Assembly: GCA_016794525.1 (NCBI GenBank)
Contig: JAEUJY010000077.1
Location: 45,091 to 109,090 of the forward strand
Reading direction: 5' to 3'
DNA: 64,000 bases
Origin: Myxococcales bacterium
GTDB taxonomy: Bacteria; Myxococcota_A; Polyangia; Haliangiales; Haliangiaceae
Of this stretch, positions 15,527-53,251 are shown piece after piece. Positions within the stretch are counted from its first letter, which is position 1. Each line of letters begins with the position of its first letter. The notes under the pieces were generated by a model that saw only the letters and a list, made by a program, of their open reading frames with translations, had not been told where the DNA came from and did no database searches. Made by a program: the position numbers and the translations under genes.

Positions 15527-15557
15527 GCCGGCTTCGACGCTCGCGAGGCGAGGCGGG

Positions 15558-18329
<2,772 letters not shown>

Positions 18330-18501
18330 GGTAGCCCGCGGGCCGCACGCGCGTGTGTCACCCGTGCGGTGACAGTTGACACCGGATTGGCGACACCACG
18401 CGCGCGCCGGGTAAGCTCGCCGCGCCGACTGGTGGCCGCAGCCTTGCAGTGTCCAGGACCGAGTGAAGATCGCACGCCGACTCGCACAGGGAGCACCTCG
18501 C

Positions 18502-19674
18502 ATGCCAGCACGTCTCATTACGCGGGGAGCCGCGCTCAGCGCAGCCCTCGCGTCCACCGTTCTCGGGCTTCGCAGCGTCGAGGCCGCATGCAACAACTAC
18601 CGCTGCGGTAGCAACACGCCGATCCTCTGGGGGACCTTCGTTCGCGGGCTCAGCACTACCGGCGAGGCCAACGCCGAGCGGGTCGTGCTGCGGCCGGAGC
18701 TGATCCCGTCGGGCACCGGCACCTGCACCGGCACCGACATCAAGCTCACCTCGGTCGATGGGCGACTCATGGGCGTGCGCGACAAGGTCGAGGTGTGCGC
18801 CGACGCGGCGCTGGTCGGGTCCGCGTTCGACATGGACGTGCCGTACAAGGCGCTGACCATGCGCGTGCGCGTGCGCATCTCGGAGATCAAGACGGTGTCG
18901 ACCTGGGAGGTCGAGGGCGCGGTGGTGTTGCCGACGTATCGCTTCGAGGTCATCGCCAACGGCGCGATCGCGGCGCCGGGCGAGCCGCCACCCGACGGCG
19001 CGCGGCCGTTCGGGCCGGTGACGCCGTCGCCGCTGTGCCAGGAGACGCCGGGCTGGATGGAGGAGTGGCAGACCGACGGGCTGGTGCCGGTGCCGGTCGG
19101 CCCCACCGTCGGGTTCCTGCGCTACGAGAACCCCGAGGGCACCGTCGGCCAGCAGTGGCAGGTCGGCACCGACCACGCGCTGATCGTCAGCGGCGAGACG
19201 TACACCGAGACCGGCTCGTCGGCGGCGATCGGGCCGCAGTGGTTCCAGATCGCGTGCGCTGGCTCGGCGATCGCCAAGATGCGGCTGCTCGGCATCGATC
19301 CCTGGGAGTCGCGCGCCGTCGCGGGCGGGCTCACGACCGCGACGCTGAAGATGCTGGGCGCCCGCTACGGCGGCGACGTCGCGTTCACCAGGCCCGGCAT
19401 GGCGGTGCGCTGGGAGCGCTGGGACGCGCGGCGCTTCTACGGCGGGCCCGCGCGCGACCTCGCGCCCGGGCCGTCGGAGGCGACGTGGACCCGCAGCGGC
19501 GCGGCGTGCGTCGATCACCTGCGGCTGATGCGGGCGAGCCTCGGCGGCCGCTGGCTGACCTGGGTCGAGGGCATCGCGCTGGTGTCGCTGGCACGCGAGT
19601 ACCGCCTACGCCCGTGCCCCACTACCGCCCGCGCGGTGTGGACGACCACGACGGTCGATCACGTCGCGCACTGA
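18502..19674 (+). CDS. Secreted hypothetical protein.
   Basis: ATG at 18502 with AGGGAG upstream. Signal peptide MPARLITRGAALSAALASTVLGLRSVEAA. Confidence 0.5.
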   Translation: MPARLITRGAALSAALASTVLGLRSVEAACNNYRCGSNTPILWGTFVRGLSTTGEANAERVVLRPELIPSGTGTCTGTDIKLTSVDGRLMGVRDKVEVCADAALVGSAFDMDVPYKALTMRVRVRISEIKTVSTWEVEGAVVLPTYRFEVIANGAIAAPGEPPPDGARPFGPVTPSPLCQETPGWMEEWQTDGLVPVPVGPTVGFLRYENPEGTVGQQWQVGTDHALIVSGETYTETGSSAAIGPQWFQIACAGSAIAKMRLLGIDPWESRAVAGGLTTATLKMLGARYGGDVAFTRPGMAVRWERWDARRFYGGPARDLAPGPSEATWTRSGAACVDHLRLMRASLGGRWLTWVEGIALVSLAREYRLRPCPTTARAVWTTTTVDHVAH

Positions 19675-19739
19675 GCGCAGACCGATCGGCGCCGCGTTGA
19701 CGGCGATGACCCGCCGGCGCTACAGATGCCCGAGCCGAG

Positions 19740-20438
19740 ATGCCGCCGCCGACACCAGCCATGCACGCGCGGCGGCCGACCGGCCACGGCGGCTGGCGGC
19801 CGGGCGCGGGGCGGAAGAAGCGGCCGGGGTCGGATCCGCACCTGCCGCGCGCGCGGTTCGCGGGGGCGACGCCGGTGTACGTCACGGTGAAGCTGGCGGC
19901 CGACGCGCCGACGCTGCGCACGGCGGCGGTCGCGCGGGCGGTGTGGGCCGCGATCGAGGCCGGGCACTGCGCCGACTTCCGCGTCGTGCACTACGGCGTG
20001 TTCGGCGATCAGCTGCGCTTCGTCGTCGAGGCGTCCGGCACGCAGGCGCTCACGCGCGGCATGCAGGGGCTGAGCATCCGGCTCGCGCGAGCCATCAACG
20101 CGCAGCTGGGGCGCCGCGGCAAGCTGTTCGCGCAGCGCTACCAGGCGCGGCCGCTGCGCACGGCGGCGGCGGTGCGCGACGCGATCCGCGATGTCTTGCT
20201 CGGCGCCCGGCGCCCCATCAGCGCCGGCGGCGCCCGGCTCAAGCCCGGCGCGATCGATCCTCACTCGAGCGGGCTGTGGTTCGATGGCTGGAAGGCCGCG
20301 GCCCGCACCGACGTCGCGTGGCTGCGCGCCCTGGCCAAGGCCGGTCGCCCGACGGCGGCGCCGCGCACGGCGTTGCTCGCGCGCGGCTGGCGCACCGCGG
20401 GCGGGCCGCTCGACGTCGACGACGCGCCGCGGTCGTGA
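19740..20438 (+). CDS. IS200/IS605-like (Y1 HUH) transposase-like / REP-associated tyrosine transposase-like protein, probably degenerate.
   Basis: N-terminal GGWRPGAGRKKRPG. Beta-strand FRVVHYGVF. C-terminal LFAQRYQARPL...VRDAIRDV resembles the catalytic-Tyr helix of IS200/RAYT. No canonical HUH pair, and no flanking inverted repeats were seen. Confidence 0.3.
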   Translation: MPPPTPAMHARRPTGHGGWRPGAGRKKRPGSDPHLPRARFAGATPVYVTVKLAADAPTLRTAAVARAVWAAIEAGHCADFRVVHYGVFGDQLRFVVEASGTQALTRGMQGLSIRLARAINAQLGRRGKLFAQRYQARPLRTAAAVRDAIRDVLLGARRPISAGGARLKPGAIDPHSSGLWFDGWKAAARTDVAWLRALAKAGRPTAAPRTALLARGWRTAGGPLDVDDAPRS

Positions 20439-20442
20439 TCGC

Positions 20443-21996
20443 CTACGGCGCGGCCGGGTAGATGATCCGCGCGCGGACCGCGGTCATGTCGCGGTCGGGA
20501 TCGGTGGCGCTGCCGTCGCTCCAGGTGACGGCGACCGAGCGATCGGGGAGCCAGCCGATCGACGGGTCTTCCTGATCGCCGGCGGTGGTGGAGTTGACGG
20601 GCTGGGCGTCGCCGACGGGGGCGAGGTCGCCGTCGTAGCGGCGGAAGCGGATGCCGCAGCCGGCGCCGTCGCTGCCCTCGTTGCACGCCGACCAGGCGAC
20701 GCCGACGTCGGTGCCGTCGATGGCGAGGGCGGCGGGGCCGGACTCGGAGTCGTTGGTGACGATCACCGCGGCGCCGACGCCGGCGCCGGCGGCGGTGTAG
20801 CGGCGCAAGATCAGCTCGCCGTGATCGGCGGCGCCGCTGATGGTCTGGTGGCGGTAGAGCATGACCAGGTCGTTGCCGAGCCGGGCCAGCTGCGGCGGGC
20901 CGAGGCCGTCGCCGGGGTGGCTGGCGGCCAGCAGATCGGTCGGGCTCAGGGCGGCGCCGGTGGTGCCGTACAGCCGGCCACGGATGTCGCTGCCGACCCG
21001 CCACGCGAACGCCAGCGCCGAGCCGTTGCCGAGGGCCACGACCGCGGGCGTCTCGTCGTCGGTGCGCGTCGTCGTCGAGACGGTGAACGGATCGGGGGTG
21101 TTGGTGATCGGGTTGTTGATCGGCTGGCCGGTGGCCGACAGGAACCGCGCCTTGACCACGGTCTGGCCGGGCATCGCGCCGGTGTCGGTCCAGGCCACGA
21201 CGAAGCGGCCGTCAGGGAACACCGCGACCGCCGGCGTGCCCGGCGAGGTCGCCGTCGTCACCTGGGTCTCGATCGGCGTGACGTGGTTGCCGGCGGCGTC
21301 GATCACCACCGCGAACAGGTCGCCGAAGGTGGTCCACGCCGCCAGCGTGGTGCCGTTGCGATCGGTCACCATCGACGGCTCGTACCCGGTCTCGCCGTCG
21401 GTCTGGTTGATGTTGAACTGCCCGGTGCCGGCGGCGATGCCGGTGGTCACCGCGGTGCCGGTGGCGTCGTAGCGGCGGCCGAACACGTCGCAGCGCCCGA
21501 CCATCTGGCAGGTATCCGACCAGCCGATCGTGAACACGCCGTCGCTGCCGACCGCGAGCTGCCGGCCGCCGCCGTCGATCCGGAACGCCAGGTCCTGGCT
21601 GCCGACGTAGGTGGTGTTGACGACGAAGTCGTTGGGCTCGAGCAAGAGGTCGGCGTCGACGCGGCTGTCGGTGATCGGCACGACCAGCTGGCCGACGCCG
21701 CGGGCCAGGCCGCCGCCGTCCTTGGCCACCACGTCGATCGACAGGTCGCCGGTGCGGCCCGGGGTCTGGACGCTGAACGACATCGGGAACGACCGCCCCG
21801 ACACCGCGAAGGTCTCGCTCTGCGTCGAGCTATCGTTGGCCAGCACGACCGCCAGCTCGGTCACGTTGGTGACCGCCGGCCGCGCCTGCAGGTGCACGAC
21901 GATCACCGGCTCGTCGTTGCCGCACGCGCCCGCCAGCGCCCCGGCCACGACGGCGGCGGGACCCCAGAGCCAGGGGAGCGAACGAGGCGAGCGCAC
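20443..21996 (-). CDS. Lipoprotein with repeated beta-rich segments (hypothetical).
   Basis: Internal GTG start gives MRSPRSLPWLWGPAAVVAGALAGAC lipo-box. The ORF-track N-terminus (to 22626) is an artefact overlapping the next gene. Confidence 0.5.
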   Translation of the reverse strand: MRSPRSLPWLWGPAAVVAGALAGACGNDEPVIVVHLQARPAVTNVTELAVVLANDSSTQSETFAVSGRSFPMSFSVQTPGRTGDLSIDVVAKDGGGLARGVGQLVVPITDSRVDADLLLEPNDFVVNTTYVGSQDLAFRIDGGGRQLAVGSDGVFTIGWSDTCQMVGRCDVFGRRYDATGTAVTTGIAAGTGQFNINQTDGETGYEPSMVTDRNGTTLAAWTTFGDLFAVVIDAAGNHVTPIETQVTTATSPGTPAVAVFPDGRFVVAWTDTGAMPGQTVVKARFLSATGQPINNPITNTPDPFTVSTTTRTDDETPAVVALGNGSALAFAWRVGSDIRGRLYGTTGAALSPTDLLAASHPGDGLGPPQLARLGNDLVMLYRHQTISGAADHGELILRRYTAAGAGVGAAVIVTNDSESGPAALAIDGTDVGVAWSACNEGSDGAGCGIRFRRYDGDLAPVGDAQPVNSTTAGDQEDPSIGWLPDRSVAVTWSDGSATDPDRDMTAVRARIIYPAAP

Positions 21997-22061
21997 GATA
22001 ACCAGGCGAGCTAGGAGACTGTAACCGCTTGGACCCAGAGAGTAGCCGCGCTGTCGCTCGG

Positions 22062-22652
22062 CTAGTCGAAGACGACGTTGCCGAGATCGGTGGACGGGAG
22101 GCCGTCGTCGCGCAGGAGGAAGTAGCCACCTGCGCCAGCGCCGGCGACGGCGGCGATGCCGCCCCAGAACCACCAGCGAGTGTAGATCGGTTTGTCGCTG
22201 CCGCGCGCCGCGCGCTGGCGGGCCAGCTCGCGCTCGCGCTCGCGGTCGAGCTCGGCCTGGCGCTCGCGCTCGCGCTCCTCGGCCGCGGCCTGCCGCGCCT
22301 CGAGGTCGTCGATCAGCTTCTCGACGGCCTCGCGGTTGTCGGCGTCGGGCACCTCGCGCAGGTACTTGCGGAAGGCGAAGATCGCCTGGTCGTAGTGGTC
22401 GAGGTTGCGGTGCGCCTGGCCGATGTTGAACAAGAGCTTGGGCAGGGGCTTGGCCTCGTAGGCGGCCTCGAACTCGGCCAGCGCCTGATCGAACTTGCCC
22501 AGCGCGAACAGCTTGTCGCCCTTCGCGTAGTGCTTCTTGGCGTCGCGCGTGGCGGCGTCGTCGGCGCGCGCGGAGCCGATGCCCACGCCCACGCTCACCC
22601 CGAGCACCAGCGCGATCAGGGCGCACACCCCGACGGCGACCCGTCGGCTCAT
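22062..22652 (-). CDS. Small TPR-like membrane-anchored protein.
   Basis: ATG at 22652 overlaps the kinase stop (ATGA). Signal/TM MSRRVAVGVCALIALVLGV. TPR-like AKKHYAKGDKLFALGKFDQALAEFEAAYE. A charged ERERER linker precedes a C-terminal TM. Confidence 0.55.
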   Translation of the reverse strand: MSRRVAVGVCALIALVLGVSVGVGIGSARADDAATRDAKKHYAKGDKLFALGKFDQALAEFEAAYEAKPLPKLLFNIGQAHRNLDHYDQAIFAFRKYLREVPDADNREAVEKLIDDLEARQAAAEERERERQAELDRERERELARQRAARGSDKPIYTRWWFWGGIAAVAGAGAGGYFLLRDDGLPSTDLGNVVFD

Positions 22653-24601
22653 CCGCCCCCCGCGAACGGGTCGATCGTCACGGTCGGATCGACCTTGGTG
22701 TCCTTGGGCTTCTTGGCCGAGCCCGAGCCAGCGCCCGAGCCGCCGGTCGGCGCCGCGCTGCCCGGGCCGGGATCGACCGGTGGTGGCGGCGGCGGCGGCG
22801 TGACCTTGGCCGGCTCGCGGCCGGTCTCGCGCGGCCGATCGCGGCGGCCGTCCCGACGACCGCTGGTCGCCTCGCCGGGCGGGTCGACCTCGATCGGCGT
22901 CGGGTCGGGCATGATGATCTGCTCGAGCGAGATCTCGACCGACGGCGGCGGCTTGCCCAGGTCGATCGTGAACGGCGCGTCGACGAAGCCGTCCTGGCGC
23001 ACGACGAAGTCGCGGCGCACGGTCGAGCCGCCGTCGGCGGGATCGATCTCCAGCACGCACGGCGTGTCGCACAGCGCGACCGCGGCGCCGGCCGCCTCGA
23101 CGTGGGCGCCGGCGGGGGCGTCGACCCGCACCCGCACCCGCGTCGTGGGCGCCTGGCCGGTCATCGGGGTGACCGCGGGGGCGCTGGCGACCGGCGCCGG
23201 CGCGGGCGCGGCGGGCGGCGGCGTGGACGACGAGCGCGACGCGGCGATCAGCCCGCCCGCGACGATCGCGCCCAGCGCGGCGGCGGCGCCGGCGGCCCAC
23301 AGCCAGCGCGAGCGGCGCGGCGGCGGCGGCTGGGTCCACGCGCCGGGGCCGGGGTACGGCGTGGCCTGCCCCGGCGCCAGGCCGCCGCCCATCGCCATCA
23401 TCGTCGCGTAGCCGGCGACCGGCATGATGTTGGAGCTGCGGCCCGACTCGCGCGCGCTGTCCGCCAGGCCGATCAGGTCGTGGGGCCGGGTCTCGATCGC
23501 GGCCAGCAGGTGCATCAGGTCGTCGCGCAGCGCCTGCGCCGTCGGGTAGCGCAGGCCGGGATCCTTCTGCAGGCAGCGCAGCAGCACGCCCTCGAGCCGC
23601 GGGTCGAGCGTGGCCCCGCCCGGCGTCTCGCGCGGCGGCGTGGGCTGCTCGTTGAGGTGCTTGCGCACGTACTCGCCGAACGAGCGGCCGCGGAACAGCG
23701 GCTGGCCGCAGAACAGCTCGTACATGATCGCGCCCAGCGAGTAGATGTCGGCGCGGTGATCGACGGCGAGCCCGCCCGCCTGCTCGGGCGACATGTAGGC
23801 CGGAGTGCCGATCACCGAGCCGGCCGCGGTCTCGAGGCCGATGTCCTCGTCGTCGCGGTTGAGCAGCTTGGCGACACCGAAGTCCAGCAGCTTGACCAGC
23901 TCGGCGCCGTCGGGCGTCGGCACCAGCACGATGTTGTCGGGCTTGAGGTCGCGGTGGATCACCCCGACCGCGTGGGCGGCGGCCAGGCCGTCACAGATCT
24001 GGATCAGCGCGGCCAGCGCGCGCGGCAGCTCGAAGCCGTTGCGCGACCAGGCGCCCAGGCTCTTGCCGCGCAAGAGCTCCATGATGATGAAGGTCGTGCC
24101 GTCCTCGAGCTCGATGAAGTCGGTGACGTCGACGATGTTGCGGTGGCGCACGCGGTTGACGGTGCGCGCCTCCTGGAAGAACCGGCTCACCGCGTCACGC
24201 CGCTTGGCGTAGTCGGTGCGCAGGAGCTTGAGCGCGACCTCGCGGCCCAGGCGCACGTGCTCGGCCCGGTAGACGAAGCCCATGCCGCCCTTGCCGATCA
24301 GCTCGAGCAGCCGGTAGACGCCCAGCGTCTGGCCGACCCGCTCGTCGGAGCGATCGGCGGCGCGCGGCACCGGCGGCGGCCGGGTGGCGGGGGTGCGCAC
24401 CTTGGCGGCAGGGCTGTCGATGCGGGTGTTGATCGACCGCGGGCGCTCGTCGCGGGTGCCCATCGGCAGCTCGGGCGGCGCGCCGTCCCAGTCGTCGTCG
24501 CCCGGGGCCAGCGACTCGGTCGGCTCCGGGCCGGATCGCGACCGCCCGCCGACGGTGGACGACGACGGAGCGCGAGGCGGAGGCTGACGCGATGCCGACA
24601 T
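22649..24601 (-). CDS. Ser/Thr protein kinase with a TM segment and a C-terminal extracytoplasmic domain.
   Basis: Kinase motifs GKGGMGFVY, HRDLKPDNIV, DFG, GTPAYMSPE. TM helix WLWAAGAAAALGAIVAGGLIAA. Confidence 0.8.
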   Translation of the reverse strand: MSASRQPPPRAPSSSTVGGRSRSGPEPTESLAPGDDDWDGAPPELPMGTRDERPRSINTRIDSPAAKVRTPATRPPPVPRAADRSDERVGQTLGVYRLLELIGKGGMGFVYRAEHVRLGREVALKLLRTDYAKRRDAVSRFFQEARTVNRVRHRNIVDVTDFIELEDGTTFIIMELLRGKSLGAWSRNGFELPRALAALIQICDGLAAAHAVGVIHRDLKPDNIVLVPTPDGAELVKLLDFGVAKLLNRDDEDIGLETAAGSVIGTPAYMSPEQAGGLAVDHRADIYSLGAIMYELFCGQPLFRGRSFGEYVRKHLNEQPTPPRETPGGATLDPRLEGVLLRCLQKDPGLRYPTAQALRDDLMHLLAAIETRPHDLIGLADSARESGRSSNIMPVAGYATMMAMGGGLAPGQATPYPGPGAWTQPPPPRRSRWLWAAGAAAALGAIVAGGLIAASRSSSTPPPAAPAPAPVASAPAVTPMTGQAPTTRVRVRVDAPAGAHVEAAGAAVALCDTPCVLEIDPADGGSTVRRDFVVRQDGFVDAPFTIDLGKPPPSVEISLEQIIMPDPTPIEVDPPGEATSGRRDGRRDRPRETGREPAKVTPPPPPPPVDPGPGSAAPTGGSGAGSGSAKKPKDTKVDPTVTIDPFAGGG

Positions 24602-24720
24602 GCAAGGTCGGGTGCGACGGGCGCACCCGGACCACCTTGTATTCTACGGTCGCCTACGGACGGGGGCAATGGCTATCGCCGCCTGGCGGTAGGGGCGGGG
24701 GGCGACGAGCCCCCTGGAAC

Positions 24721-28391: not shown

Positions 28392-30289
<1,898 letters not shown>

Positions 30290-30293
<4 letters not shown>

Positions 30294-31948
30294 AGCGGGC
30301 GATCGCGCAGCTCGCGCTTGAGGATCTTGCCGGTCGGGTTGCGGGGCAGCTCGTCGAGGAACACCACCTGCCGCGGCCGCTTGTAGTCGGCCAGCTCGCG
30401 CCGGCAGTAGTCGGCGACCTCGTCGGCGGTGATCGCCTGGCCCGGGCGCACGACGACGTAGGCGCGCAGCGTCTCGCCCCACTCGGGATCCGGCACGCCA
30501 ACCACCGCGACGTCGAGGATCGCCGGGTGGGTGTGCAGGTGGTCCTCGATCTCGCGCGGGTAGATGTTCACGCCGCCCGAGATCACCATGTCGTGCTTGC
30601 GCGACTCCATGTACAGGTAGCCGTCGGCGTCGAGCCGGCCGAGGTCGCCGACCGAGAAGAAGCCGTCCTTGATCGACTTGTCGGTGGCGTCGCGGTTCTT
30701 GTGGTAGCCGCCGATCAGCATCGAGTTGCGCACGTAGACCTCGCCGACCTGGCCCAGCGGCACCTCGGCGCCGGCGTCGTCGAGCAGGCGGATCTGGTTG
30801 CCACGCATCGCGCGCCCGACGGTGCCGGGCCGCGCGGTGTGCTCGCCGGGGCCGGCCAGCGTCACCAGCCCGGTCTCGGTGGCCCCGTAGAAGTTCCACA
30901 GGACCGGCCCGAACTGCGCCTCGACCTGGCGCGCGGTCTCGGTGGCCAGCGGCGCGGCCCCGCTCATGATCCAGCGCAAGGACGAGGTGTCGTAGCGGCG
31001 CCGCACCGCCGCCGGCAGCGCGGTGATGCGCACCAGCATCGTCGGCACCATCAGCGTCGAGGTCACCCGCTCGCGCTCGATCAGCGCCAGGCACGCCTCG
31101 GGATCGAAGTGGTTCATCAGCACCGACGTCGCGCCCAGCGACATCGTGATCGCGACGAACGCCGGCGCCGCCGAGTGGTACAGCGGGCACACGACCAGGT
31201 GGCGGTCGTCGTGGTTCATGCCGACCCGCGCGATCATGTCGGCGACCGCGTCGAAGCCGGTCTGCTTCCAGCTTCGGGTCGCGCCCTTGGGCTTGCCGGT
31301 CGTGCCCGAGGTGTAGACGATCACGCCGCCGCCGTCGCCGCCGCGCGCGGTCGGCGGCAGGTCGCCGGGCTGCCCGGCGATCGCGTCGTCCCAGGGCTCG
31401 CCCACCGGCGGCGCGGCGGTGGCGCCGGCGACGATCACCTGGCAGCGGCTGCCGGCCAGGCGCATCGCCTCGGCGAAGGTCTCGGCGTACGGCGCGCCGA
31501 CGATCGCCGCCGCCGGCTCGGCGTTGCCGAGGATGTACGCCACCTCGGCCGGCTTCGAGCGGTAGCCGATCTGCACGACCACCGCGCCGACCCGGGCCAG
31601 CGCCTGCTGCGCGATCAGGTAGTCGGCGCCGTTGCCCAGCATGCACGCCACCGGCGCCGCCGCGCCGCCGCGCGCGGCGATCGCGTGGGCCAGCTGGTTC
31701 ACCGCCTGATCGAACGTCCGCCACGTGTAGCGGCGGTCGCCGTCGATGACGCACTCCTTGTCGGGGTGCATCCGCGCGTGCAGCAAGGTCGCCAGGTGCG
31801 GCCCGGGCTTGGTCAGGCGCGCGGCGGCGGCGAAGCCGGGCAGCGCGGTGGGCCGGAACGCCCGCACCATCCCCGACTTGCGCAGGACGTCGAGGGCGAA
31901 GCGCGCGTCGCTGGCGCGGGCGCGCAGGCGGTCGAGGATGGGCGGCAC
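30290..31948 (-). CDS. AMP-dependent synthetase/ligase (acyl-CoA synthetase family).
   Basis: AMP-binding motifs [19 protein letters not shown], and a C-terminal GKILKRELR-type motif. Confidence 0.8.
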
Positions 31949-31961
31949 GCCCGCGAGGGTA

Positions 31962-34900
31962 CTACCGACCGCGGGCCGTGAGGTAGCGACGCACCTCCTC
32001 GGCCTGGGCCTGGTTCTTCGGGTTGCGGGCCAGGTACGCCTCCCACGCGCGGATCGTGGCGCCGTCGTTGTGCATCACCTGCTGGACGGTGCCGAGCAGC
32101 CACAGCGCGTCGGTCAGCCACGGCACGGTCACGCCGTCCTTGCGCTCGTCGGTGGTCGCCAGCGCGGTGGCGCGCTCGAGGGCGCTGGCGGCCTGCGCGG
32201 CGCGATCGCCCTCGTAGTACAGCTCGCCGAGCTTGTAGTAGGCGTCGGCGCGCGGCTGGGCGGCGACCGCCTTGGTCAGCCACGCGACCGCGTTGGCGCG
32301 GTCCTCGAGCTCGACGTAGGCCATGCCCAGGCCGTACGGCAGGTCGGGGTTGCCGGGATCCTTCTCGAGCGCCTTCTTGAAGGCGGTGATCGCCTTGTCG
32401 TACTCGCCGCGGGCCAGCCGGATCCGGCCGGCGCCGGCCCAGGCGTTGACGATCGACTCGTCGAGCGACGCGGCCTGGTCGTAGGCGCGCAGCGCCTCGT
32501 CGCGGACCGCGGTGTCGCCGGTCTGGCCCGAGAACTTCTCGCTGACGCGGCCGAGGCCGTCGAGGAACTGGGCGTCGGGGTTGCGGCTGGTGGCCTCCTG
32601 CATCATCCGCCGCGCCTCGCTGAAGCGCTTGTCGAGGAGCAGGCCCTCGCCCTTGAGGAACAGGCCGGTGGGGTCGTCGGGCGTGACCGCGAGCAGCTCG
32701 TCGCCGAGCGCGCGGGCGGCGGCGATGTCGCCGGTGCGCGCGAAGAACCGGCCGGCGCGGATCTTGGTCTCGACGGTGACGTCGGCCAGCCGCAGCAGCT
32801 TGCGGTACAGCTCGGCGGCGTCGGCGTCGCGGTGGGCGGCCTCGAACCCGCGGGCCAGCTCGACGCCGAGGTCGATGCGGCTCGGGTCGAGCTCGAACGC
32901 CTTCACCAGCGTCGCCACCGCCTCGTCCTGCTTGCCCTGGCGGCGCAGCGCCTCGGCCAGCTGGTAGTGGGCCTCGACCTCGGCGGGCCGCTGCTCGATC
33001 GCGCTGCGCAGCCAGCGCTCGGCCTGGGGCGCCGCGCCGGCCGACAGATACGCGACACCGAGCGCGATCGCGACGCCGGCGTCGCTGGTCGCCGCGGCGG
33101 CGATCGTCGTCAGCTTGGCGTCGGCCCGCGCGCGCAGCGCGGCCGCCTCCTCGGGAGTCTTGGCCGCGTCGGCCATGTGGCCGAGGATCGTCGCCGCGGC
33201 GATCGTCGGGGCGATGTCGCCGGCGCCCAGCGCGGTGGCGGCGCGCTCGTACGCGGCCAGCGCCGCGGCGGGGTTCTTCTCGGCCTCCAGCCGGTGGCCG
33301 TCGATCATGTCGAGGCGGCCCAGCATCGCCGGCGCGGTGATCGGCGGCTTGCGCGCGCGCAGCGCCGCCAGCCGGGCCGCGGCCTCGGCGATCTTGTTGC
33401 GGCGCAGGTCGATCTCGGCGGCGGTCAGGCCGGCGTCGACGTCGTCGGGCGCCAGCGCCAGCGCCTTGTCGGCGGCCTCGGCGGCGGCGTCGATCTTGCC
33501 GTCGGCCAGCTCGGTCGCGGCCAGCGACACCAGCACGCCGCGATCGCCGGGGAGGATCGCCAGCGCCTTGCGGTAGCGATCGCGGGCCGCGTCGAGGCGA
33601 CCGCCGCGGCGCGCCTCGTCGCCGGCCTTGGTCCACGCGAGCACGACCGCGCGCGGGTCGGCCTTGTCGATGCCGGTGCGCTGCAGGATCGCCAGGAGCG
33701 CCGTCTCGCGCTTGCCCAGATCGGTGGTGGGCGCGGTCAGCGCCTCGCCGACCAGCGCGCCGACGTGCTCGGGCGCCAGCTCGATCACCTTCAGGTAGCT
33801 GGCGTGGGCCGCGGCGACGTCGCCGGCGGCCTGCTGCGCCTGCGCCAACCCGTAGGTCGCGGGCACCGGCCGCGCGGTCAGCGCGGCGGTGAACGCCTGC
33901 TGCGCGGCGGCCCACTCCTGGGCGCCGGCCTGGGCCCAGCCCAGGTACAGCTGCGCGTCGGCGTCGCCGCGCGCGGCCAGCGGGGTCAGCGCGGCGATCG
34001 CGCCGGTGTAGTCGCCCTCGATGACGTCGCGCACCGCGGCGGCCTTGTCGACCGCCGGGTGGTGGGCGCCGTTGGTCGTCGCGGTCTCGATCAGCCGCCG
34101 GCCGTTGGCGAGCCGGGACTCGGCCTGGGTGCCCTCCTCGACGTACCCGACCAGCGCGGCCTGGGCCGCGATGCCCAGCGCCTCGGCGTGGCGCTTGTCG
34201 AGCGCCAGCACGTCGTTCGCCGCGCGGGCGGCGCGCCGCCAGTGGCTGTCGTCGTTCGCGAGCAGCGCCTTGCGCGCGGCCTTCAGGTTGCGATCGAGAT
34301 CGGCGGCGCGGGTCTTCTGCGCGTCCCACCGCTTGTACATGAAGAAGCCGCCGGCGCCGACCGCGCCGACGCCGAGCACCGCCGCGAGCACCAGCTTGGC
34401 GGCGCGCGGCGACAACCCGCGCTTGGCCGGCCCCTCCTTGGGCGCGGCGCGCGCCTTGGGCTGCGCGGGCGCGTCGCGGCGCGGCACCGCGAGGTCGATG
34501 TCGCCGGTGTTCGCGGCCGGCCCGCGGCTGTCCGCGCTGCCCGGCGAGGTGGCGGCGCCGGCCTTGAACGAGACGACCCCGCGCCCGGCCGCGGCGGCGG
34601 CGGCCGGCGAGCTGGGCAGGTCGAGGCCGAGCGGATCGCCGTCGCCGAGCTCGAGCGCGGGCGGCGGCTCCGACGGCGCGTGCGCGCGCGGCGTCGCCGG
34701 CACGCTGCGGGCGCTGGCGTTGGTCGGCTCGAGCTCGATCATCCCCGAGCCGCCCGAGGCCGGCGGCAGGTCGATCCCCTCGAGGGCGGCCCCCGGCGCG
34801 ACGCTCGGCGGCGGCGCCGGGAAGCGATCGGCGCGCGGCACGCTGGGCGGCGGCAGGTCGTCGAACAGGCCGATCGCCGGCGCCGGGCTCTTGGCCGGCG

Positions 34901-35996
34901 GCAGATCGTCGAACATGCCGCCGGGGGATGGCGGCTCGACGCGCGCGGCCGGCGGGTTGGTCGCCGGGCCGGGGAGGTCGTCGAAGAAGCCCTTGGGCGC
35001 GGGCAGATCGACGCCGCCCTTGCCGGTGGCCGGGCCGGGGAGGTCGTCGAAGAAGCCCTTGGGCGCGGGCAGGTCGGGGCCCCGCGGGGTCGCCGGGCCG
35101 GGGAGGTCGTCGAAGAAGCCCTTGGGCGCGGGCAGATCGACGCCGCCCTTGCCGGTGGCCGGGCCGGGGAGGTCGTCGAAGAAGCCCTTGGGCGCGGGCA
35201 GCGGCGCGTCGTTCGCGTGCGGGCGCGCCGGCGGGATCGTCGGTGGCATGCCGCCGACGGTGCGCTTGGGATCGGGCGGCGGTGGCGCGGCGGCGGGGCG
35301 CTTCGGCGCCGGCAGGTCACCGATCGTCGGCCCCTTGGGCGCCGGCAGGTCGGCGAACAGGTCGTTGCCGCTCGCGCGCTTCGGCGTCGGCAGATCGCTG
35401 ATCGCCGGCGGCCCCTTGGGCATCGGCAGGTCGCTGATCGCCGGCGGCCCCTTGGGCATCGGCAGGTCGCTGATCGGCGGCGGCCCCTTGGGCGCGGGTA
35501 GGTCGACGATGCCGGCCGATGGGCCCTTGGGCGCGGGCAGGTCGACGATCGCCGACGGCGACGGGCCCTTGGGCGCGGGCAGGTCGGTGAACGGCCCCGG
35601 CGCGGTGGCCTTGGCGGCCGGGGGTGGCGCGCCGCGCGGCGAGGGGCCGACCGGCGCGACCAGGTCGACGCCGTCGAGCGTGAACGGCTCGGGCTCCCGC
35701 GGCTTGGGCACCGCCTTGGGCGCGGGCAGGTCGACGATCGCCGACGGCGACGGGCCCTTGGGCGCGGGCAGATCGACGGCCTCGACGCGGCCGCCGGGCA
35801 CGCCGGCCGGCGACGGGCGGCGCGGCGCGGGCAGATCCGCGAGGTCGATGACGTCGCCGGTGCCACCCGCGACGTCGCCGGGGACCACGATGCGCGCCTT
35901 GCACTTCGCACACGACACCGTCTTGCCCGCCGGCGGAATGTCAGCCGCGGGGAAGCGGTACATCGCGCCGCACACGGCGCATGCCACTTCCTTCAT
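31962..35996 (-). CDS. 1344-aa protein: N-terminal MJ0042-type zinc ribbon, Pro-rich tandem repeats (DLPAPKGP / FFDDLPGPATGKGGVDLPAPKG), one TM helix, then about 800 aa of TPR repeats. Architecture is GltJ/AgmX-like.
   Basis: Zinc ribbon CAVCGAMYRF...SCAKCKARIVVP. TM VLAAVLGVGAVGAGGFFMY. Many TPR units. Single long frame with strong codon bias. Confidence 0.7.
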   Translation of the reverse strand: MKEVACAVCGAMYRFPAADIPPAGKTVSCAKCKARIVVPGDVAGGTGDVIDLADLPAPRRPSPAGVPGGRVEAVDLPAPKGPSPSAIVDLPAPKAVPKPREPEPFTLDGVDLVAPVGPSPRGAPPPAAKATAPGPFTDLPAPKGPSPSAIVDLPAPKGPSAGIVDLPAPKGPPPISDLPMPKGPPAISDLPMPKGPPAISDLPTPKRASGNDLFADLPAPKGPTIGDLPAPKRPAAAPPPPDPKRTVGGMPPTIPPARPHANDAPLPAPKGFFDDLPGPATGKGGVDLPAPKGFFDDLPGPATPRGPDLPAPKGFFDDLPGPATGKGGVDLPAPKGFFDDLPGPATNPPAARVEPPSPGGMFDDLPPAKSPAPAIGLFDDLPPPSVPRADRFPAPPPSVAPGAALEGIDLPPASGGSGMIELEPTNASARSVPATPRAHAPSEPPPALELGDGDPLGLDLPSSPAAAAAAGRGVVSFKAGAATSPGSADSRGPAANTGDIDLAVPRRDAPAQPKARAAPKEGPAKRGLSPRAAKLVLAAVLGVGAVGAGGFFMYKRWDAQKTRAADLDRNLKAARKALLANDDSHWRRAARAANDVLALDKRHAEALGIAAQAALVGYVEEGTQAESRLANGRRLIETATTNGAHHPAVDKAAAVRDVIEGDYTGAIAALTPLAARGDADAQLYLGWAQAGAQEWAAAQQAFTAALTARPVPATYGLAQAQQAAGDVAAAHASYLKVIELAPEHVGALVGEALTAPTTDLGKRETALLAILQRTGIDKADPRAVVLAWTKAGDEARRGGRLDAARDRYRKALAILPGDRGVLVSLAATELADGKIDAAAEAADKALALAPDDVDAGLTAAEIDLRRNKIAEAAARLAALRARKPPITAPAMLGRLDMIDGHRLEAEKNPAAALAAYERAATALGAGDIAPTIAAATILGHMADAAKTPEEAAALRARADAKLTTIAAAATSDAGVAIALGVAYLSAGAAPQAERWLRSAIEQRPAEVEAHYQLAEALRRQGKQDEAVATLVKAFELDPSRIDLGVELARGFEAAHRDADAAELYRKLLRLADVTVETKIRAGRFFARTGDIAAARALGDELLAVTPDDPTGLFLKGEGLLLDKRFSEARRMMQEATSRNPDAQFLDGLGRVSEKFSGQTGDTAVRDEALRAYDQAASLDESIVNAWAGAGRIRLARGEYDKAITAFKKALEKDPGNPDLPYGLGMAYVELEDRANAVAWLTKAVAAQPRADAYYKLGELYYEGDRAAQAASALERATALATTDERKDGVTVPWLTDALWLLGTVQQVMHNDGATIRAWEAYLARNPKNQAQAEEVRRYLTARGR
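34930..35560. repeat. Near-perfect DNA tandem repeats (units of about 60/120 nt and 42 nt) encoding the Pro-rich repeats of the ZnR-TPR protein.
   Basis: Repeated unit gggccggggaggtcgtcgaagaagcccttgggcgcgggcagatcgacgccgcccttgccggtggcc, and ggcaggtcgctgatcgccggcggccccttgggcatc x3. Confidence 0.7.
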
Positions 35997-36044
35997 CTGA
36001 TCGAAATTGTACCCCGCCGGCGCGGGCGATGCGCGGCCGGGTGA

Positions 36045-36644
36045 CTACTTGCGGGTATCGAACGGGTTGCCGCCCAGCTCGCCGCCCGCGCCGCCACCGC
36101 CGCGCCCGCGCCGCCGGCCCCGGGGCGCCGCCTCATCCGGAGCGTCGAGCCGCGCGCCGCGCAGGCCGCGCAAGATCTTGCGGTCGACCTCGGGCAGCAG
36201 GTCGAGCAGCGTCGCGGCCTGCTCGGGCGTCAGCACCGCGCGCAGGTCGGCGAAGCGCTGCTCCTCGGCGGTCCACCGCGCGCGCTGGTTGGCGACCAGC
36301 TGGTCGAGCGCCGCGGTGATGTCGGCCGCCTTGTGGGCGGTGCGCGCGGTCGCCAGCTTGTCGCGCAGCGCCGCGCGCTCGGCCAGCAGCTTGGCCAGCA
36401 CCTCGTCGTACTTGTCGAGCACCGGGAACAGCTTGCCGGCGGTGGCCTCGTCGAGATCGAGCTGCTCGGTCAGCACCATCGCGCGCATGATCCGGATGCG
36501 CTGCTTGACCTTGTCGCGCTTGCCGCCGTTGCCGGGGCCCTTCTGCGCGACCTGCGGCCCGCCGCGGTCGGGCCGCGCCTCCGCCGGCGCCACCAGGCCG
36601 GCCACCACCAGCACCCCCACGAGCATGGTTCGCAGCGTCGTCAT
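36045..36644 (-). CDS. Periplasmic LTXXQ-motif protein (Spy/CpxP-like family).
   Basis: ATG at 36644 after AGGAGG. Signal peptide. Motifs MVLTEQL and VLTPEQ. ATGA overlap with the anti-sigma stop. Confidence 0.55.
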   Translation of the reverse strand: MTTLRTMLVGVLVVAGLVAPAEARPDRGGPQVAQKGPGNGGKRDKVKQRIRIMRAMVLTEQLDLDEATAGKLFPVLDKYDEVLAKLLAERAALRDKLATARTAHKAADITAALDQLVANQRARWTAEEQRFADLRAVLTPEQAATLLDLLPEVDRKILRGLRGARLDAPDEAAPRGRRRGRGGGGAGGELGGNPFDTRK

Positions 36645-37236
36645 CCTGCCTCCTGCGCGTCGAGCCACGCCAGCGCGCGGTCGAGCTCGTCATCGGAGAA
36701 GTCGTCGATCCAGCCGGTCCAGGTCGCGCCCAGCGCCGGCAGCTCGTCGTCCCCGTCGTCCTCGTCGTCGAACGCGATCACCTCGTCGATGAGCGCGTCG
36801 TCGATCGGGCCCAGCCCGTCGAGGTCGCTGGCGGGATCGTCGTCCATCGCCAGCGCGGGATCGTCGTCGTCGACCGGCGTCGGCGCGGGCGTCGGCGCCA
36901 CCGCGATGCTCGGCAGCGGCACCACCGGCCACGACCAGCGCCCGGCGTGCGGCCGCACCGCCAGCGCCACCGCCGCGGCCGCCGCCAGCACGACGCCGGC
37001 GTACAGCCACGGCCGCCGCCGCGCCGGGGCCCGGGTGGTCGCCGCGAAGATGCGCTCCTCGAGGGCGCGCCAGTCGGGCGCCGCGCCGGCGGTCGGCAGC
37101 GCCCGCACCGCGGCCACGGTGCCGCCGTCGTCCTCGGCCAGCGCCGCCTCGACCCGCGCGCGCTGGGCGGCGGTCAACGCCTCCGGCGCGTCGGCGTAGG
37201 TCGCCAGCAGCTCGTCGAGGGTAGCGTCGTCGTTCA
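36641..37236 (-). CDS. Putative anti-sigma factor (single TM; acidic periplasmic tail).
   Basis: ATG overlaps the ECF sigma stop (ATGA). TM helix [18 protein letters not shown]. Position between an ECF sigma factor and a periplasmic LTXXQ protein. Confidence 0.5.
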
Positions 37237-37836
37237 TGGCTCGATCCCCTCGCTGCCGAGGAGGCTGCGCAGCCGCTTGACCGCGAAGTGGAAGCTTACC
37301 TTGGCCGCGTTCTCGGTGCAGTCGGCCAGCACCGCCACCTCGCGGAACGACAGCTCGTCGAAGACGCGCAGCTCGAGCACCAGCTTCTGCTTGGGCGGCA
37401 GCTCGGCGATCGCCGCCCGCAGCGCCGCCGCGCGCTGGCTGCCCTCGAGCCGGTCGGCGCCGGTGGCGGCGATCGTCAGCGCGTCGTCGGCCAGCTCGCT
37501 GGGCTGCTCGCGGCCGCGGTCGCGCACGGTGTTGAGCGACAGGTTGATCGCGATCCGGTACAGCCAGCTGCGGACGCTGGCGTCGCCGCGGAAGTTGGCC
37601 AGCGCCTGGTAGGCGCGCACGAAGGCCTGCTGGGTCACGTCGGCGGCGTCGGCGTCCGACCGCACGTAGCGCCGGGCCAGGTGCCACAGGCCGCGCTGGT
37701 GGCGGCGCACGATCTGCTCGAACGCCGCCCGGTCGCCGCGCTGGGCCTTGGCCACCAGCGCCCGGTCGATGTCGACCGGCTCCTCGGTCACCGCGTCCTC
37801 GGTGCGCAGCCACGCGGCGGGCAGGGCCAGGTCCAT
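37234..37836 (-). CDS. ECF (sigma-70 family, group 4) RNA polymerase sigma factor.
   Basis: Sigma-70 region 2 ([20 protein letters not shown] ... [11 protein letters not shown]) and region 4 HTH ([28 protein letters not shown]). Confidence 0.8.
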
Positions 37837-37935
37837 GACGGTTGGACCCGGCGCTTGCGCCCAGGGTTAAGCGGCAGTAGGGTCACCGCCCAAGTACCCT
37901 CGATCGCTCGCGTTTCGGGGGCAGAAAGCCGCACC

Positions 37936-42439: not shown

Positions 42440-42525
<86 letters not shown>

Positions 42526-42605
42526 GGCTGACAACCGAATAGCTCGATCGTCGTTTTCTTTCTCGCTCGCCCATGGCGGTCCACCAGGTCCGCTAGATGG
42601 TCGAA

Positions 42606-42698
<93 letters not shown>

Positions 42699-42764
42699 GA
42701 CTTGGCCGCTGCGAGCGCTCCGTATCGCTCGCGTCCGCTTCTCTATGTCCTAGCTTTTGTGTTT

Positions 42765-42840
<76 letters not shown>

Positions 42841-43326
42841 ATGAGCATCGACCCCGTCACCGATGACGACCTGATGCTGCTCGCCCTCGAAGAGGCGCGG
42901 GCAGCCGGGGCCCATGGTGACGTCCCGGTCGGCGCGATCATCGCGGTGCCCGCCGACGGCCGCTTCGCGGTCATCGGGCGTGGCCACAACCGCCGCGAAC
43001 AACGTGGCGATCCCACCGCGCACGCCGAGATCGAGGCGCTGCGCGACGCCGCCGCCCACCTGGGTCACTGGCGGGTCGAGGCCACGCTGGTCGTCACCCA
43101 GGAGCCGTGCCCGATGTGCGCCGGCGCGCTGGTCAACGCCCGCGTCCGCCGCCTCGTCTACGGCTGCGACAACCCCAAGGCCGGGGCCGTCGCCAGCCTG
43201 TTCACCATCTGCACCGACCCGCGCCTCAACCATCGGCTCGAGGTCGTCGCCGGCGTCCGCGCCAGCGAGTGTGCCGCCGAGCTCAAGCGCTTCTTCGAGG
43301 CGCTGCGGGCCCAGGGGCAACGCTAG
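42841..43326 (+). CDS. tadA: tRNA-specific adenosine deaminase TadA.
   Basis: CDA zinc motifs HAEIEA and PCPMCAGA. Starts directly after tRNA-Arg(ACG). Confidence 0.85.
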   Translation: MSIDPVTDDDLMLLALEEARAAGAHGDVPVGAIIAVPADGRFAVIGRGHNRREQRGDPTAHAEIEALRDAAAHLGHWRVEATLVVTQEPCPMCAGALVNARVRRLVYGCDNPKAGAVASLFTICTDPRLNHRLEVVAGVRASECAAELKRFFEALRAQGQR

Positions 43327-43362
43327 TCTCTGTACCCGGTGCGGAATGCGCCGGGACGTCGA

Positions 43363-43457
<95 letters not shown>

Positions 43458-43598
43458 TGATCCGTGCACCCGGTGCGCGGCGCGTGAGCCCGGGACGTTT
43501 TCCCGGGCGGGTTTCGAGAGCTCGTGACGTGAACCAAGCCATCGCGAGGTGGCGAGGGGCGCTGCGTGGGGCCTCGTGACGGTTTCTGTGAAGTGTCT

Positions 43599-43685
<87 letters not shown>

Positions 43686-49368: not shown

Positions 49369-49447
49369 GCGGTCGCGCCGAAAACGCCCCGGGAGCGCGC
49401 CCGGGGCGCCGCGTTGTCGCGCCTCGGGGCTATAGTCCGCCGGCCCC

Positions 49448-51302
<1,855 letters not shown>

Positions 51303-51310
<8 letters not shown>

Positions 51311-51635
51311 CAAGATGCCCGACATGCAGGCGCTGATGCGCCAGGCCCAGCAGATGCAAGCCAAGGTGGCCAAGGCGCAGGAGGAGGTCCTGTCGATGAC
51401 CGCCGACGGCGCCGCCGGCGGTGGCATGGTCACCGTGACCGTCAACGGCGCGTTCGACGTCACCAAGATCAAGATCGAGAAGGACGTCGTCGATCCCAGC
51501 GACATCGGCATGCTCGAAGACCTGGTGATGTCGGCGGTCAACGCCGCCAACGCGCGCATGCGCGAGGTCACCAAGCAGCACATGAGCAAGGTCATGGGCG
51601 GCATGAACATCCCCGGCATGCCGGGCATGTTCTGA
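51303..51635 (+). CDS. ybaB: Nucleoid-associated protein YbaB/EbfC.
   Basis: 110 aa with MQALMRQAQQMQ...VTVNG...KIEKD. Overlaps the dnaX stop by 8 nt. Confidence 0.85.
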
Positions 51636-51643
51636 GACAAAGA

Positions 51644-51735
51644 GAGGGTCTTTCGCAAAGACCCTCGCGTGTTGTGAGGAGGGTCTTTCGCAAGGACCCT
51701 CGCGTGGTTGAGGAGGGTCTTTCGCAAAGACCCTC
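51644..51735. repeat. Three tandem REP-like palindromic units.
   Basis: gagggtctttcgcaaagaccctc repeated three times at about 34-nt spacing. Each has a 7-bp stem and 9-nt loop. No T-tract follows. Confidence 0.65.
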
Positions 51736-51886
51736 CCCCGGCATTCGCCGGGGCCCCCACCCGAAACGGCCCGGAGCGTTCAGCGGAGCGCGGGGGCGAC
51801 CGCCGACGAGACGCGCGCAGGGCCGTGGCGAGCGGCTGTCAGCGCCGGCGCCCGATCGATCGCGCGGGTCGCGCGTGGAGGTCGGC

Positions 51887-52609: not shown

Positions 52610-52648
52610 TCCGCGCCGGCGGCGGTTCGTGCTACGCAAGGAGGCGCG

Positions 52649-53251
52649 ATGGCGGCCGATCCGATCCAGCGACTGGTCCGCGAGCTGGCCCGCCTGCCGG
52701 GCATCGGCGAGAAGTCGGCGACCCGCCTGGCGATGCACCTGGTGCGCTCGCCCAAGCCGCAGGTGCGCGAGCTGGCACAGGCGCTGATCGACGCCACCGA
52801 GCAGATCGGCCTGTGCTCGACCTGCATGACGCTGACCGCCGAGGATCCCTGCCGGCTGTGCGCCGACACCCGCCGCGACAACGACGTCGTGTGCGTGGTC
52901 GCGCAGCCGTCCGACGTGATCGCGATCGAGCGCGGCGGTCACTACCGCGGCCGCTACCACGTGCTGCACGGCGTGCTGGCGCCGCTCGACGGCATCGGCC
53001 CCGACGATCTGCGCATCGCCGAGCTGGTGCGGCGGCTGGCGCCGGTCGGCGGCCCCCCGGTGCACGAGGTCATCGTCGCCACCGCGCCGACCGTCGAGGG
53101 CGAGGCCACGGCGATGTACCTGGCGCGGCTGATCAAGCCGCTGGGCGTGCGGGTCACCCGGATCGCGACGGGCCTGCCGGTCGGCGGAGATCTCGAGTAC
53201 AGCGATCAGGCCACCATCGGTCGGGCCCTTGCCGGCCGCACCTCGCTGTAG
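52649..53251 (+). CDS. recR: Recombination protein RecR.
   Basis: HhH motif LPGIGEKSA; C4 zinc finger CSTCMTLTAEDPCRLC; Toprim domain. Confidence 0.9.
   Translation: MAADPIQRLVRELARLPGIGEKSATRLAMHLVRSPKPQVRELAQALIDATEQIGLCSTCMTLTAEDPCRLCADTRRDNDVVCVVAQPSDVIAIERGGHYRGRYHVLHGVLAPLDGIGPDDLRIAELVRRLAPVGGPPVHEVIVATAPTVEGEATAMYLARLIKPLGVRVTRIATGLPVGGDLEYSDQATIGRALAGRTSL

Follow-up and report, generated by a model that had tools for sequence, protein, structure and literature searches.

Here we analysed a 64,000-nt stretch of DNA (hereafter the window) from a Myxococcales bacterium of the Haliangiaceae (assembly GCA_016794525.1, contig JAEUJY010000077.1, positions 45,091-109,090), concentrating on one giant gene located at 31962..35996 on the minus strand and made up of 1344 codons plus a stop codon. 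On balance, we consider it probable that its product is a bitopic inner-membrane scaffold or adaptor, specific to Kofleriaceae and Haliangiales, that would expose a multivalent docking array to the cytoplasm. The analyses confirmed that the gene encodes a real membrane-spanning protein, whose parts follow each other in the order zinc ribbon (ZnR), disordered stretch (about 490 aa, bearing 27 DLPxP motifs), one transmembrane (TM) helix and a 790-aa superhelix of tetratricopeptide repeats (TPR). The original prediction for this DNA had proposed this succession of ZnR, proline-rich repeats, TM helix and TPR, and every one of the parts that it listed was recovered by profile matches, hydropathy and AlphaFold2 (AF2) modelling.

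The evidence for a docking array comes from aa 54-395 (34812..35837, minus strand), where motif scanning, disorder prediction and a logo of the homologues delimit a disordered cytoplasmic array that contains the 27 DLPxP motifs; in the six-frame translation of the window the motif was absent outside this array. Type A units have the form hydrophobic-x-DLPAPKG and are spaced 10-13 aa apart, type B units read DLPAPKGFFDDLPGPA... and are repeated every 21-22 aa, and a further motif peptide of the array is DLPAPKGFFDDLP. A position-frequency table of the motif, built from 1745 LPxP sites in 114 non-redundant homologues, gave the consensus hydrophobic-x-D-L-P-[A/Q]-P-[K/A/R]-G, with D at position -1 in 85 % of the sites, A at +2 in 61 % (Q in 16 %) and K at +4 in 59 % (A and R also occurring there), the flanks being variable and a spacing of 10-12 residues being favoured; the longer unit LPAPKGFFDDLPxP is conserved in the family as well. 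The motif is kept at 35-40 % overall identity while the spacers diverge, which argues for a functional short linear motif and not for mere low complexity. The array consists of copies, 15-27 per protein, of a conserved short linear motif that has apparently not been described before, and to our knowledge LPxPK does not fit the ligand consensus motifs of SH3, WW or GYF domains. The remaining part of the disordered cytoplasmic region (aa 396-532; 34401..34811, minus strand), delimited from the family consensus and the sequence, has two conserved motifs of acidic-hydrophobic character, LDLG.P and FDDLDLS.P, as well as a basic stretch next to the membrane.

At the DNA level the units are encoded by near-perfect repeats, as had been proposed, but their periods are 63, 66 and 129 nt and 36 and 42 nt instead of the 60, 120 and 42 nt given originally. 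A search for DNA repeats yielded a perfect 114-nt direct repeat encoding type B units (34959..35201, minus strand), whose two copies (34959-35072 and 35088-35201) are 100 % identical and succeed each other with a period of 129 nt, that is 66 + 63 nt. Type A units (ISDLPMPKGPPA) are encoded by a 36-nt tandem array of 3.7 copies (35379..35510, minus strand; identities of 95 % and 83 %), and a pair of 62-nt segments (35525-35586 and 35714-35775) is 98 % identical. All of these periods are multiples of three, so that slippage would alter the length of the protein and never its reading frame.

Alignment of the N-terminal region of the window protein with those of the relatives P0001 (94 % identical), P0002 (92 %), P0004 (87 %), P0003 (81 %) and P0005 (73 %) showed that all the length differences correspond to whole units. 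Compared with the window protein, P0002 is missing one type A and one type B unit, P0003 is missing three type A and two type B units and P0004 has one additional type A unit, while P0005 contains about seven type B units. The expectation that repeat copy number would be variable was thus borne out among relatives 73-94 % identical (between-strain level), and an invariant array is not what we found. Spacers are uniform inside each protein and different between proteins, being GPATGKGGV in the window protein, GPATAKGGV in P0004 and GPAQTKGAS in P0005, a homogenisation that indicates that the repeats have probably evolved in concert by unequal recombination or slippage. Among the 120 best homologues, all of which have the same layout (and about 108 of which have the ZnR at residue 6), the number of DLPxP motifs ranged between 8 and 25 per protein and the region preceding the TM helix between 440 and 700 aa, whereas the region following it measured 790-810 aa. 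The length of the array varies, therefore, while that of the periplasmic domain stays constant.

Because the repeats are near-identical, they, and hence part of the protein, might in principle be an artefact of assembly. Two close relatives that come from short-read metagenomes, P0002 and P0003, are shorter by whole units, which is compatible with repeat collapse, and some of the shorter variants from short-read assemblies could indeed be collapsed. However, the same arrays are present in more than 100 independent assemblies, and tandem arrays of 63-69 nt occur also in distant loci, including some on contigs of 4.9 and 6.3 Mb, so that the repeats are not an artefact of the assembly of the window. 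In addition, the reading frame is intact with unit lengths that are all multiples of three, and the longest perfect repeat (114 nt) is shorter than a typical read. We consequently regard an artefactual origin as extremely unlikely.

The reading frame itself was established from codon-position G+C. The window has a G+C content of 70-80 %, and as a result long spurious open reading frames (ORFs) are found on every strand; antisense or alternative-frame ORFs of 1251, 838 and 659 aa overlap the giant gene, including one on the plus strand at 31746-35501. Third-position G+C (GC3) reaches 0.97 in the minus-strand frame of 31962..35996 and in no other, which identifies this frame as the real gene, and we rejected the overlapping ORFs as artefacts of a G+C of about 77 %. 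No other start codon precedes the ATG of the gene in its open frame, and the product is 1344 aa long.

The protein begins with an MJ0042-type zinc ribbon (aa 4-38; 35883..35987, minus strand), assigned from its TIGR02098 score, the AF2 model, its fold match and the conservation of its cysteines. These cysteines, C6, C9, C29 and C32, form a CxxC-x19-CxxC signature and are invariant across the family of the protein. The TIGR02098 profile (MJ0042_CXXC) scored 23.7 bits against a cut-off of 20.9, passing a curated threshold of the NCBIfam type; the Pfam profile Zn_ribbon_4 (PF13717) gave 25.6 bits, under its gathering score of 30.3. When aa 1-120 were modelled with AF2, the ZnR appeared as four short strands, with predicted local distance difference test (pLDDT) values of 73-84, followed by a disordered chain. 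In the fold search the top match was the zinc finger of ZitP (2nb9; probability 0.99, TM-score 0.64, root-mean-square deviation 2.5 A), and the ZnR of GltJ (7zok) ranked 17th with a fold E value of 1.3; a sequence search of the PDB placed 7zok first (E 0.28, 15 bits) and 2nb9 second, both matches being weak (E about 0.3). The ZnR belongs to the MJ0042/ZitP/GltJ class. GltJ and ZitP, the two characterised bitopic proteins that have such a ZnR, have been described as adaptors with a cytoplasmic N-terminus (N-in) whose ZnR binds polarity factors, and by analogy with them the ZnR of the giant protein would be a protein-protein interaction module, possibly a regulatory one.

Hydropathy identified only one strong hydrophobic segment in the protein (aa ~533-553, Kyte-Doolittle 2.15), corresponding to a single TM helix (aa 533-553; 34338..34400, minus strand) with the sequence LVLAAVLGVGAVGAGGFFMY and a conserved GxGGF motif, which is present in nearly all homologues. 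Three observations, namely that no signal peptide is present, that the zinc site is of the Cys4 type and that the flanking charges favour N-in by the positive-inside rule (over 116 homologues, 4.2 K+R on the N side vs 2.7 on the C side, and net charges of +2.8 vs +0.1), lead us to infer a cytoplasmic N-terminus and a periplasmic TPR domain. TM helices of the TonB/TolA type bear the motif S-x3-H; inspection of the family consensus showed that this motif is not conserved in the TM helix of the giant protein.

The remaining 790 aa (31965..34337, minus strand) form, according to AF2 and Pfam, an all-alpha TPR superhelix built from about 21 pairs of helices, presumably located in the periplasm. The AF2 model of residues 525-1344, based on an alignment of 75 sequences, had a mean pLDDT of 93.3, a predicted TM-score (pTM) of 0.71 and 44 helices; in it the TM helix runs on into a long helix and about 43 more helices build an uninterrupted TPR-like superhelix, so that the whole of the region after the TM helix is a solenoid of helical pairs. 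Many TPR families scored above their gathering cut-offs at aa ~780-1290 (TPR_2 113 bits, TPR_16 88 bits, TPR_1 77 bits). Matches beyond the fold class were of a general nature. Foldseek against the PDB retrieved only generic long scaffolds (Ctr9, Ski3, IFT-A subunits and OGT) with TM-scores of 0.2-0.39, PDB sequence matches were to designed consensus TPRs, MamA and similar proteins, and the NCBIfam matches (PrsT, MamA, LapB, PilW, YbgF, Tgl and GltE) were all far under their cut-offs. PrsT, the TPR lipoprotein of PEP-CTERM systems and the best of these matches (TIGR02917), reached 112.9 bits when 312.2 are required; we rejected this identity, the giant protein having no signal peptide and a ZnR at its N-terminus. 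PrsT, Ctr9, Ski3, the IFT-A subunits and the TPR of OGT share with the giant protein the fold class and the size of the superhelix, but none of them combines a ZnR, a short linear motif array and a TM helix, and the similarity is generic.

These matches also bear on the question of whether the giant protein could be mainly a periplasmic TPR assembly factor, acting in exopolysaccharide export, secretin or pilus assembly or outer-membrane biogenesis in the manner of PrsT, BcsC-TPR, PilW/Tgl or LapB, with the cytoplasmic tail serving only as a spacer or regulator. The identity of the best NCBIfam matches and the fact that the C-terminal domain is a long solenoid of constant length agree with such a role. 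Scores so far below the cut-offs reflect generic TPR similarity, however, the neighbourhood contains no genes for polysaccharide, pilus or secretin functions, and a motif conserved in high copy number together with an invariant ZnR argues that the cytoplasmic part is functional and not a spacer. We judge this explanation to be unlikely.

The family to which the protein belongs was found in one lineage only. A protein search recovered more than 560 relatives, of which the best 120 are nearly all 1250-1500 aa long (with a few shorter or incomplete gene calls) and, where labelled at all, go under the names 'tetratricopeptide repeat protein' or 'Zn finger-like uncharacterized protein' and come from Kofleriaceae or Myxococcales metagenome-assembled genomes (MAGs). 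Scanning for the pattern in one genome per species gave relatives in at least 127 genomes, the best 80 of which are all uncultured MAGs (Kofleriaceae, Haliangiales, Myxococcales or the like), the closest being 93 % identical. When residues 1-420 were searched exhaustively with HMMER against 1.84 billion representative proteins only 119 hits were obtained; those of odd length were truncated gene calls of the giant-protein family or unrelated low-complexity proteins, and the combination of ZnR and motif array was found in no other architecture. In these searches the family was confined to uncultured myxobacteria of the Kofleriaceae/Haliangiales type. No curated family model, solved structure or paper covering it was found, and a literature search on the combination of MJ0042, TPR and Myxococcus returned nothing.

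The original prediction had likened this architecture to that of GltJ (AgmX, MXAN_4862), the gliding focal-adhesion protein of Myxococcus xanthus, and we compared the giant protein with it on the basis of published domain architecture and of the ZnR alone. GltJ is a protein of 674 aa that contains, in this order, a ZnR, a linker, a GYF domain, a TM helix (385-405), a disordered periplasmic segment and a TonB-C domain. Its linker binds MglA-GTP and the ZnR, its ZnR binds MglB and its GYF domain binds a proline-rich sequence of AglZ. The gene adjoins gltI in the glt G1 cluster, which also contains gltD-H. GltJ has no TPR, the large TPR proteins of the Glt system being GltI in the cytoplasm and GltC, GltD and GltE in the periplasm. 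Part of the likeness stood: both proteins are from Myxococcota and have an N-terminal cytoplasmic ZnR of the MJ0042 type, a disordered cytoplasmic region bearing linear binding motifs (binding by the motifs of the giant protein being presumed), a single TM helix in N-in orientation (predicted here) and a periplasmic C-terminal part. The rest did not. No GYF_2 (PF14237) or TonB_C (PF03544) match was obtained in the giant protein at E <= 0.1; aa 39-120 are predicted to be disordered, aa 54-395 are motif repeats and the region after the TM helix is all alpha-helical TPR. Conversely, GltJ lacks the 27 DLPxP motifs and the 790-aa TPR solenoid and is half as long, and the direct similarity between the two ZnRs is weak (15 bits).

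Genomic context leads to the same answer. In the window and in about 60 homologous loci the neighbours of the giant gene are not glt genes but a sigma factor module, an acyl-CoA synthetase gene, selB and serS, and no Agl or Glt genes were found among the window ORFs scanned; that the best homologues lie outside any Glt-cluster context speaks against a GltJ identity. The polarity genes mglB (53949-54428, plus strand; Roadblock/LC7, NCBIfam MglB 76 bits) and mglA (an MglA-like GTPase gene, 54441-55028, plus strand), both recognised by domain search, are real and do lie at the distance of 18 kb that had been announced, but they are upstream of the minus-strand giant gene instead of downstream, and on the opposite strand. 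What separates them from the giant gene is serS, an ABC transporter, a tRNA cluster with a deaminase, nitronate monooxygenase, PPK2, dnaX, ybaB and recR, and in some relatives in which the distance is reduced to 7-8 kb the same housekeeping genes still intervene. The link with mglBA therefore looks like regional synteny in a family-level clade and not like a gene cluster.

Since the GYF domain, the TonB-C domain and the cluster context of GltJ are lacking and only the ZnR and the bitopic N-in topology agree, the giant protein is not a GltJ orthologue and should not be filed as GltJ. That it might nevertheless be one, or a direct functional replacement of GltJ in the Agl-Glt machinery regulated by the nearby MglA and MglB, we consider very unlikely. 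In its favour are the common ZnR class, the bitopic N-in layout with a disordered proline-rich cytoplasmic region, the presence of mglBA in the same conserved chromosomal region, the participation of the periplasmic TPR proteins GltC, GltD and GltE in the Glt machinery, and a single 'LLDDLP' before the TM helix, resembling FFDDLP, in a frameshifted ZnR-GYF gene of another myxobacterium. Against it count the unmatched GYF and TonB-C domains, the all alpha-solenoid C-terminal region, the size of the protein (1344 vs 674 aa), the position of the gene outside a glt cluster and among unrelated neighbours, the divergent orientation of mglBA and the genes that set it apart, and the weak ZnR similarity (15 bits; fold E 1.3).

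The frameshifted gene just mentioned is located on an ENA metagenome contig (L084:5001-6300) and encodes a ZnR, a linker, a GYF_2 domain and a TM helix, its ZnR being 83 % identical to that of M. xanthus GltJ. The sequence 'GGLLDDLPEA' just before its TM helix is a faint echo of G(F/L/M)FDDLP that occurs once and may be due to chance. Database relatives of its GYF segment are ZnR-GYF proteins of 170-330 aa only, and the gene may be a paralogue of GltJ rather than GltJ.

A comparable design is known from ZitP, the bitopic zinc-finger regulator of polarity and pili of Caulobacter crescentus (311 aa), whose cytoplasmic ZnR binds PopZ and whose periplasmic effector domain DUF3426 recruits an envelope partner. 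Its ZnR is the best structural match to that of the giant protein, has the identical CXXC-X19-CXXC signature and is called similar to the GltJ ZnR in the GltJ paper; the giant protein would share with ZitP the plan of a ZnR that meets a polar factor in the cytoplasm and, beyond the TM helix, a periplasmic domain for an envelope partner. ZitP differs in being much shorter, in having no repeat array and in its DUF3426, for which the giant protein gave no match, and its ligand PopZ is reported to be absent from Myxococcus. Polar scaffolds such as Caulobacter PodJ, which has cytoplasmic coiled coils and an intrinsically disordered region, a TM helix and a periplasmic C-terminus, and FimV/HubP are comparable in being bitopic and in joining, across the membrane, repeat domains to a long region that is disordered or repetitive. 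They show no sequence relationship to the giant protein, however, have neither ZnR nor DLPxPK, and FimV is inserted in the opposite orientation. TPR-like repeats occur in the periplasmic part of PodJ and in the cytoplasmic part of FimV.

We also examined how the giant gene may be transcribed. Examination of the 140 nt upstream of the ATG in 56 homologous loci revealed a TAnnnT hexamer ending 6-10 nt before the ATG in all 56 (for example L001, L003 and L082), when about 0.6 would be expected from background. The variants include TATGAT, TATCAT, TATATT and TACAAT, the last being the -10-like hexamer of the window (36006..36011, minus strand), 9 nt before the ATG; many loci have in common an element, CAGGCAATC, situated 16-17 nt further upstream. 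A hexamer conserved at this distance points to a predicted sigma-70-type promoter belonging to the giant gene itself, and leaves no room for a Shine-Dalgarno sequence, so that the gene would be transcribed from its own promoter into an mRNA that is probably leaderless or near-leaderless.

Upstream of the giant gene, and on the same strand, lie genes for an extracytoplasmic function (ECF) sigma factor (37237-37866), for a 199-aa acidic protein with a single TM segment that is a putative anti-sigma factor (36644-37240; no Pfam or NCBIfam match) and, directly adjacent, for a Spy/CpxP-like protein of family PF13801 with a signal peptide (36048-36668). Directly downstream is an acyl-CoA synthetase gene (30293-31948, minus strand), behind which the gene for the selenocysteine-specific elongation factor SelB is tightly packed (28395-30320, minus strand), and serS is divergent, upstream of the sigma module. 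The order sigma factor, TM protein, Spy-like protein, giant gene, acyl-CoA synthetase and selB recurs at loci 73, 61 and 38 % identical, and a tblastn survey across 83 loci detected the acyl-CoA synthetase most often (74 loci), followed by selB (62), serS and the Spy-like gene (61 each) and the sigma factor (57).

Such synteny raised the possibility that the giant protein is part of an envelope-stress module with the ECF sigma, anti-sigma and Spy-like proteins, whether by being transcribed together with them as a target or by acting as a periplasmic TPR sensor that signals to the sigma factor. The genes, that of the TM protein encoding ~200-220 aa, follow each other on one strand with gaps of 48-80 nt in about 57-61 of the 83 loci, down to 35 % identity, and no terminator-like site was found between the Spy-like gene and the giant gene. 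Nevertheless, at least two loci keep the giant gene without the module (L076 and L082, where the ORF maps are empty from serS to the giant gene), and by tblastn L077 and L079 likewise have no sigma or Spy-like match. The -10 box described above is of the sigma-70 and not of the ECF type and is present in 56 of 56 loci, those devoid of the sigma factor included. The ZnR has the spacing CxxC-x19-CxxC, and no match to the zinc-binding anti-sigma (ZAS/zf-HC2) domain was found in the giant protein. Finally, serS, the acyl-CoA synthetase gene and selB are collinear as well, so that adjacency weighs little. On account of the sigma-less loci and of the conserved promoter we downgraded the ECF-sigma operon, which we now think unlikely.

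Other features of the region were recorded in passing. The genes dnaX, ybaB, recR, mglB and mglA form a block that is conserved and collinear in this clade (window 49436-55028, plus strand; L003:836-5013), after which comes a long low-complexity ORF rich in Lys, Ala and Pro (~55.1-57.0 kb) with a weak HC2-like match and no other domain. Four tRNA-Ser genes (TGA, GCT, CGA and GGA) and one tRNA-Arg(ACG) gene surround the gene of a TadA-like cytidine/adenosine deaminase (42787-43323) at 42440-43684 on the plus strand, the tRNA-Arg(ACG) gene abutting the 5' end of the deaminase gene; because tRNA-Arg(ACG) is the substrate of TadA, the genes for enzyme and substrate appear to be juxtaposed. No tRNA-Sec, selA or selD was seen among the window tRNA genes and ORFs scanned. 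Farther downstream of the giant gene, 14435-24643 encodes two Ser/Thr kinases (one of them fused to TPR), a PAS-V4R protein and an ADYC-domain protein, typical of myxobacterial signalling, and in L001-L003, too, the region downstream of selB contains the series unknown protein, HEAT_2 protein, Pkinase and small TPR protein.

Taking together the conservation of the motif, the class of the ZnR, the topology and the constant TPR domain, the scaffold or adaptor reading would work as follows. The cytoplasmic tether, with its 15-27 equivalent docking sites, would bind with high avidity, or cluster, one or more cytoplasmic partners, and the periplasmic TPR superhelix would hold envelope partners, so that the protein would couple a cytoplasmic factor, possibly of a polarity or motility circuit, to a periplasmic assembly. 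The number of motifs would shift by in-frame gain or loss of units of 36, 63 or 66 nt that are homogenised in each genome. Such changes would alter the array only, making its valency evolutionarily tunable with the periplasmic interface left untouched.

Several results weigh against this reading. The literature search on the motif strings returned no paper, and the motif is tied to no known ligand-binding domain. In the AF2 model of aa 1-120, which served as a test of motif docking on the ZnR in the manner of the GltJ linker, the first invariant motif (DLADLPAPR) was not docked on the ZnR, pLDDT being low there. The periplasmic location of the TPR domain is a prediction, the generic fold matches of this domain (TM-scores 0.2-0.39) say nothing about periplasmic partners, and the synteny is uninformative, the region being collinear across a family-level clade. 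Within the scaffold reading, a specific connection to MglA/MglB or to gliding has perhaps a low probability. We find it quite improbable that the protein is, in a more elaborate version, a lineage-specific trans-envelope hub of Kofleriaceae in which 15-27 DLPxPK(GFFDDLP) motifs would cluster a polarity or motility factor (such as MglA-GTP, MglB or a cytoplasmic adaptor), with a ZnR controlling access as in GltJ and a solenoid of 21 TPRs holding an envelope machine. If that were true, it would imply an unrecognised pair of motif and receptor and a way of building bacterial focal adhesions or polar hubs that does not depend on GltJ.

The giant protein thus unites known parts in a new combination of domains, includes a linear motif that has apparently not been described, and is akin to the bitopic ZnR adaptors. 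Its analysis corrects an attractive but wrong transfer of annotation, as the protein is not GltJ, and flags a repeat region whose copy number may differ between assemblies of related genomes. If the array is indeed a multivalent docking platform, the family would join GltJ and ZitP as a third case of the bitopic ZnR-adaptor design, the first of them to be highly repetitive, and would add a new bacterial short linear motif with a quickly evolving copy number. Should this prove true, the protein would offer a handle on the organisation of the envelope or motility machinery in the uncultured Kofleriaceae, a common group in soils and wastewater plants.

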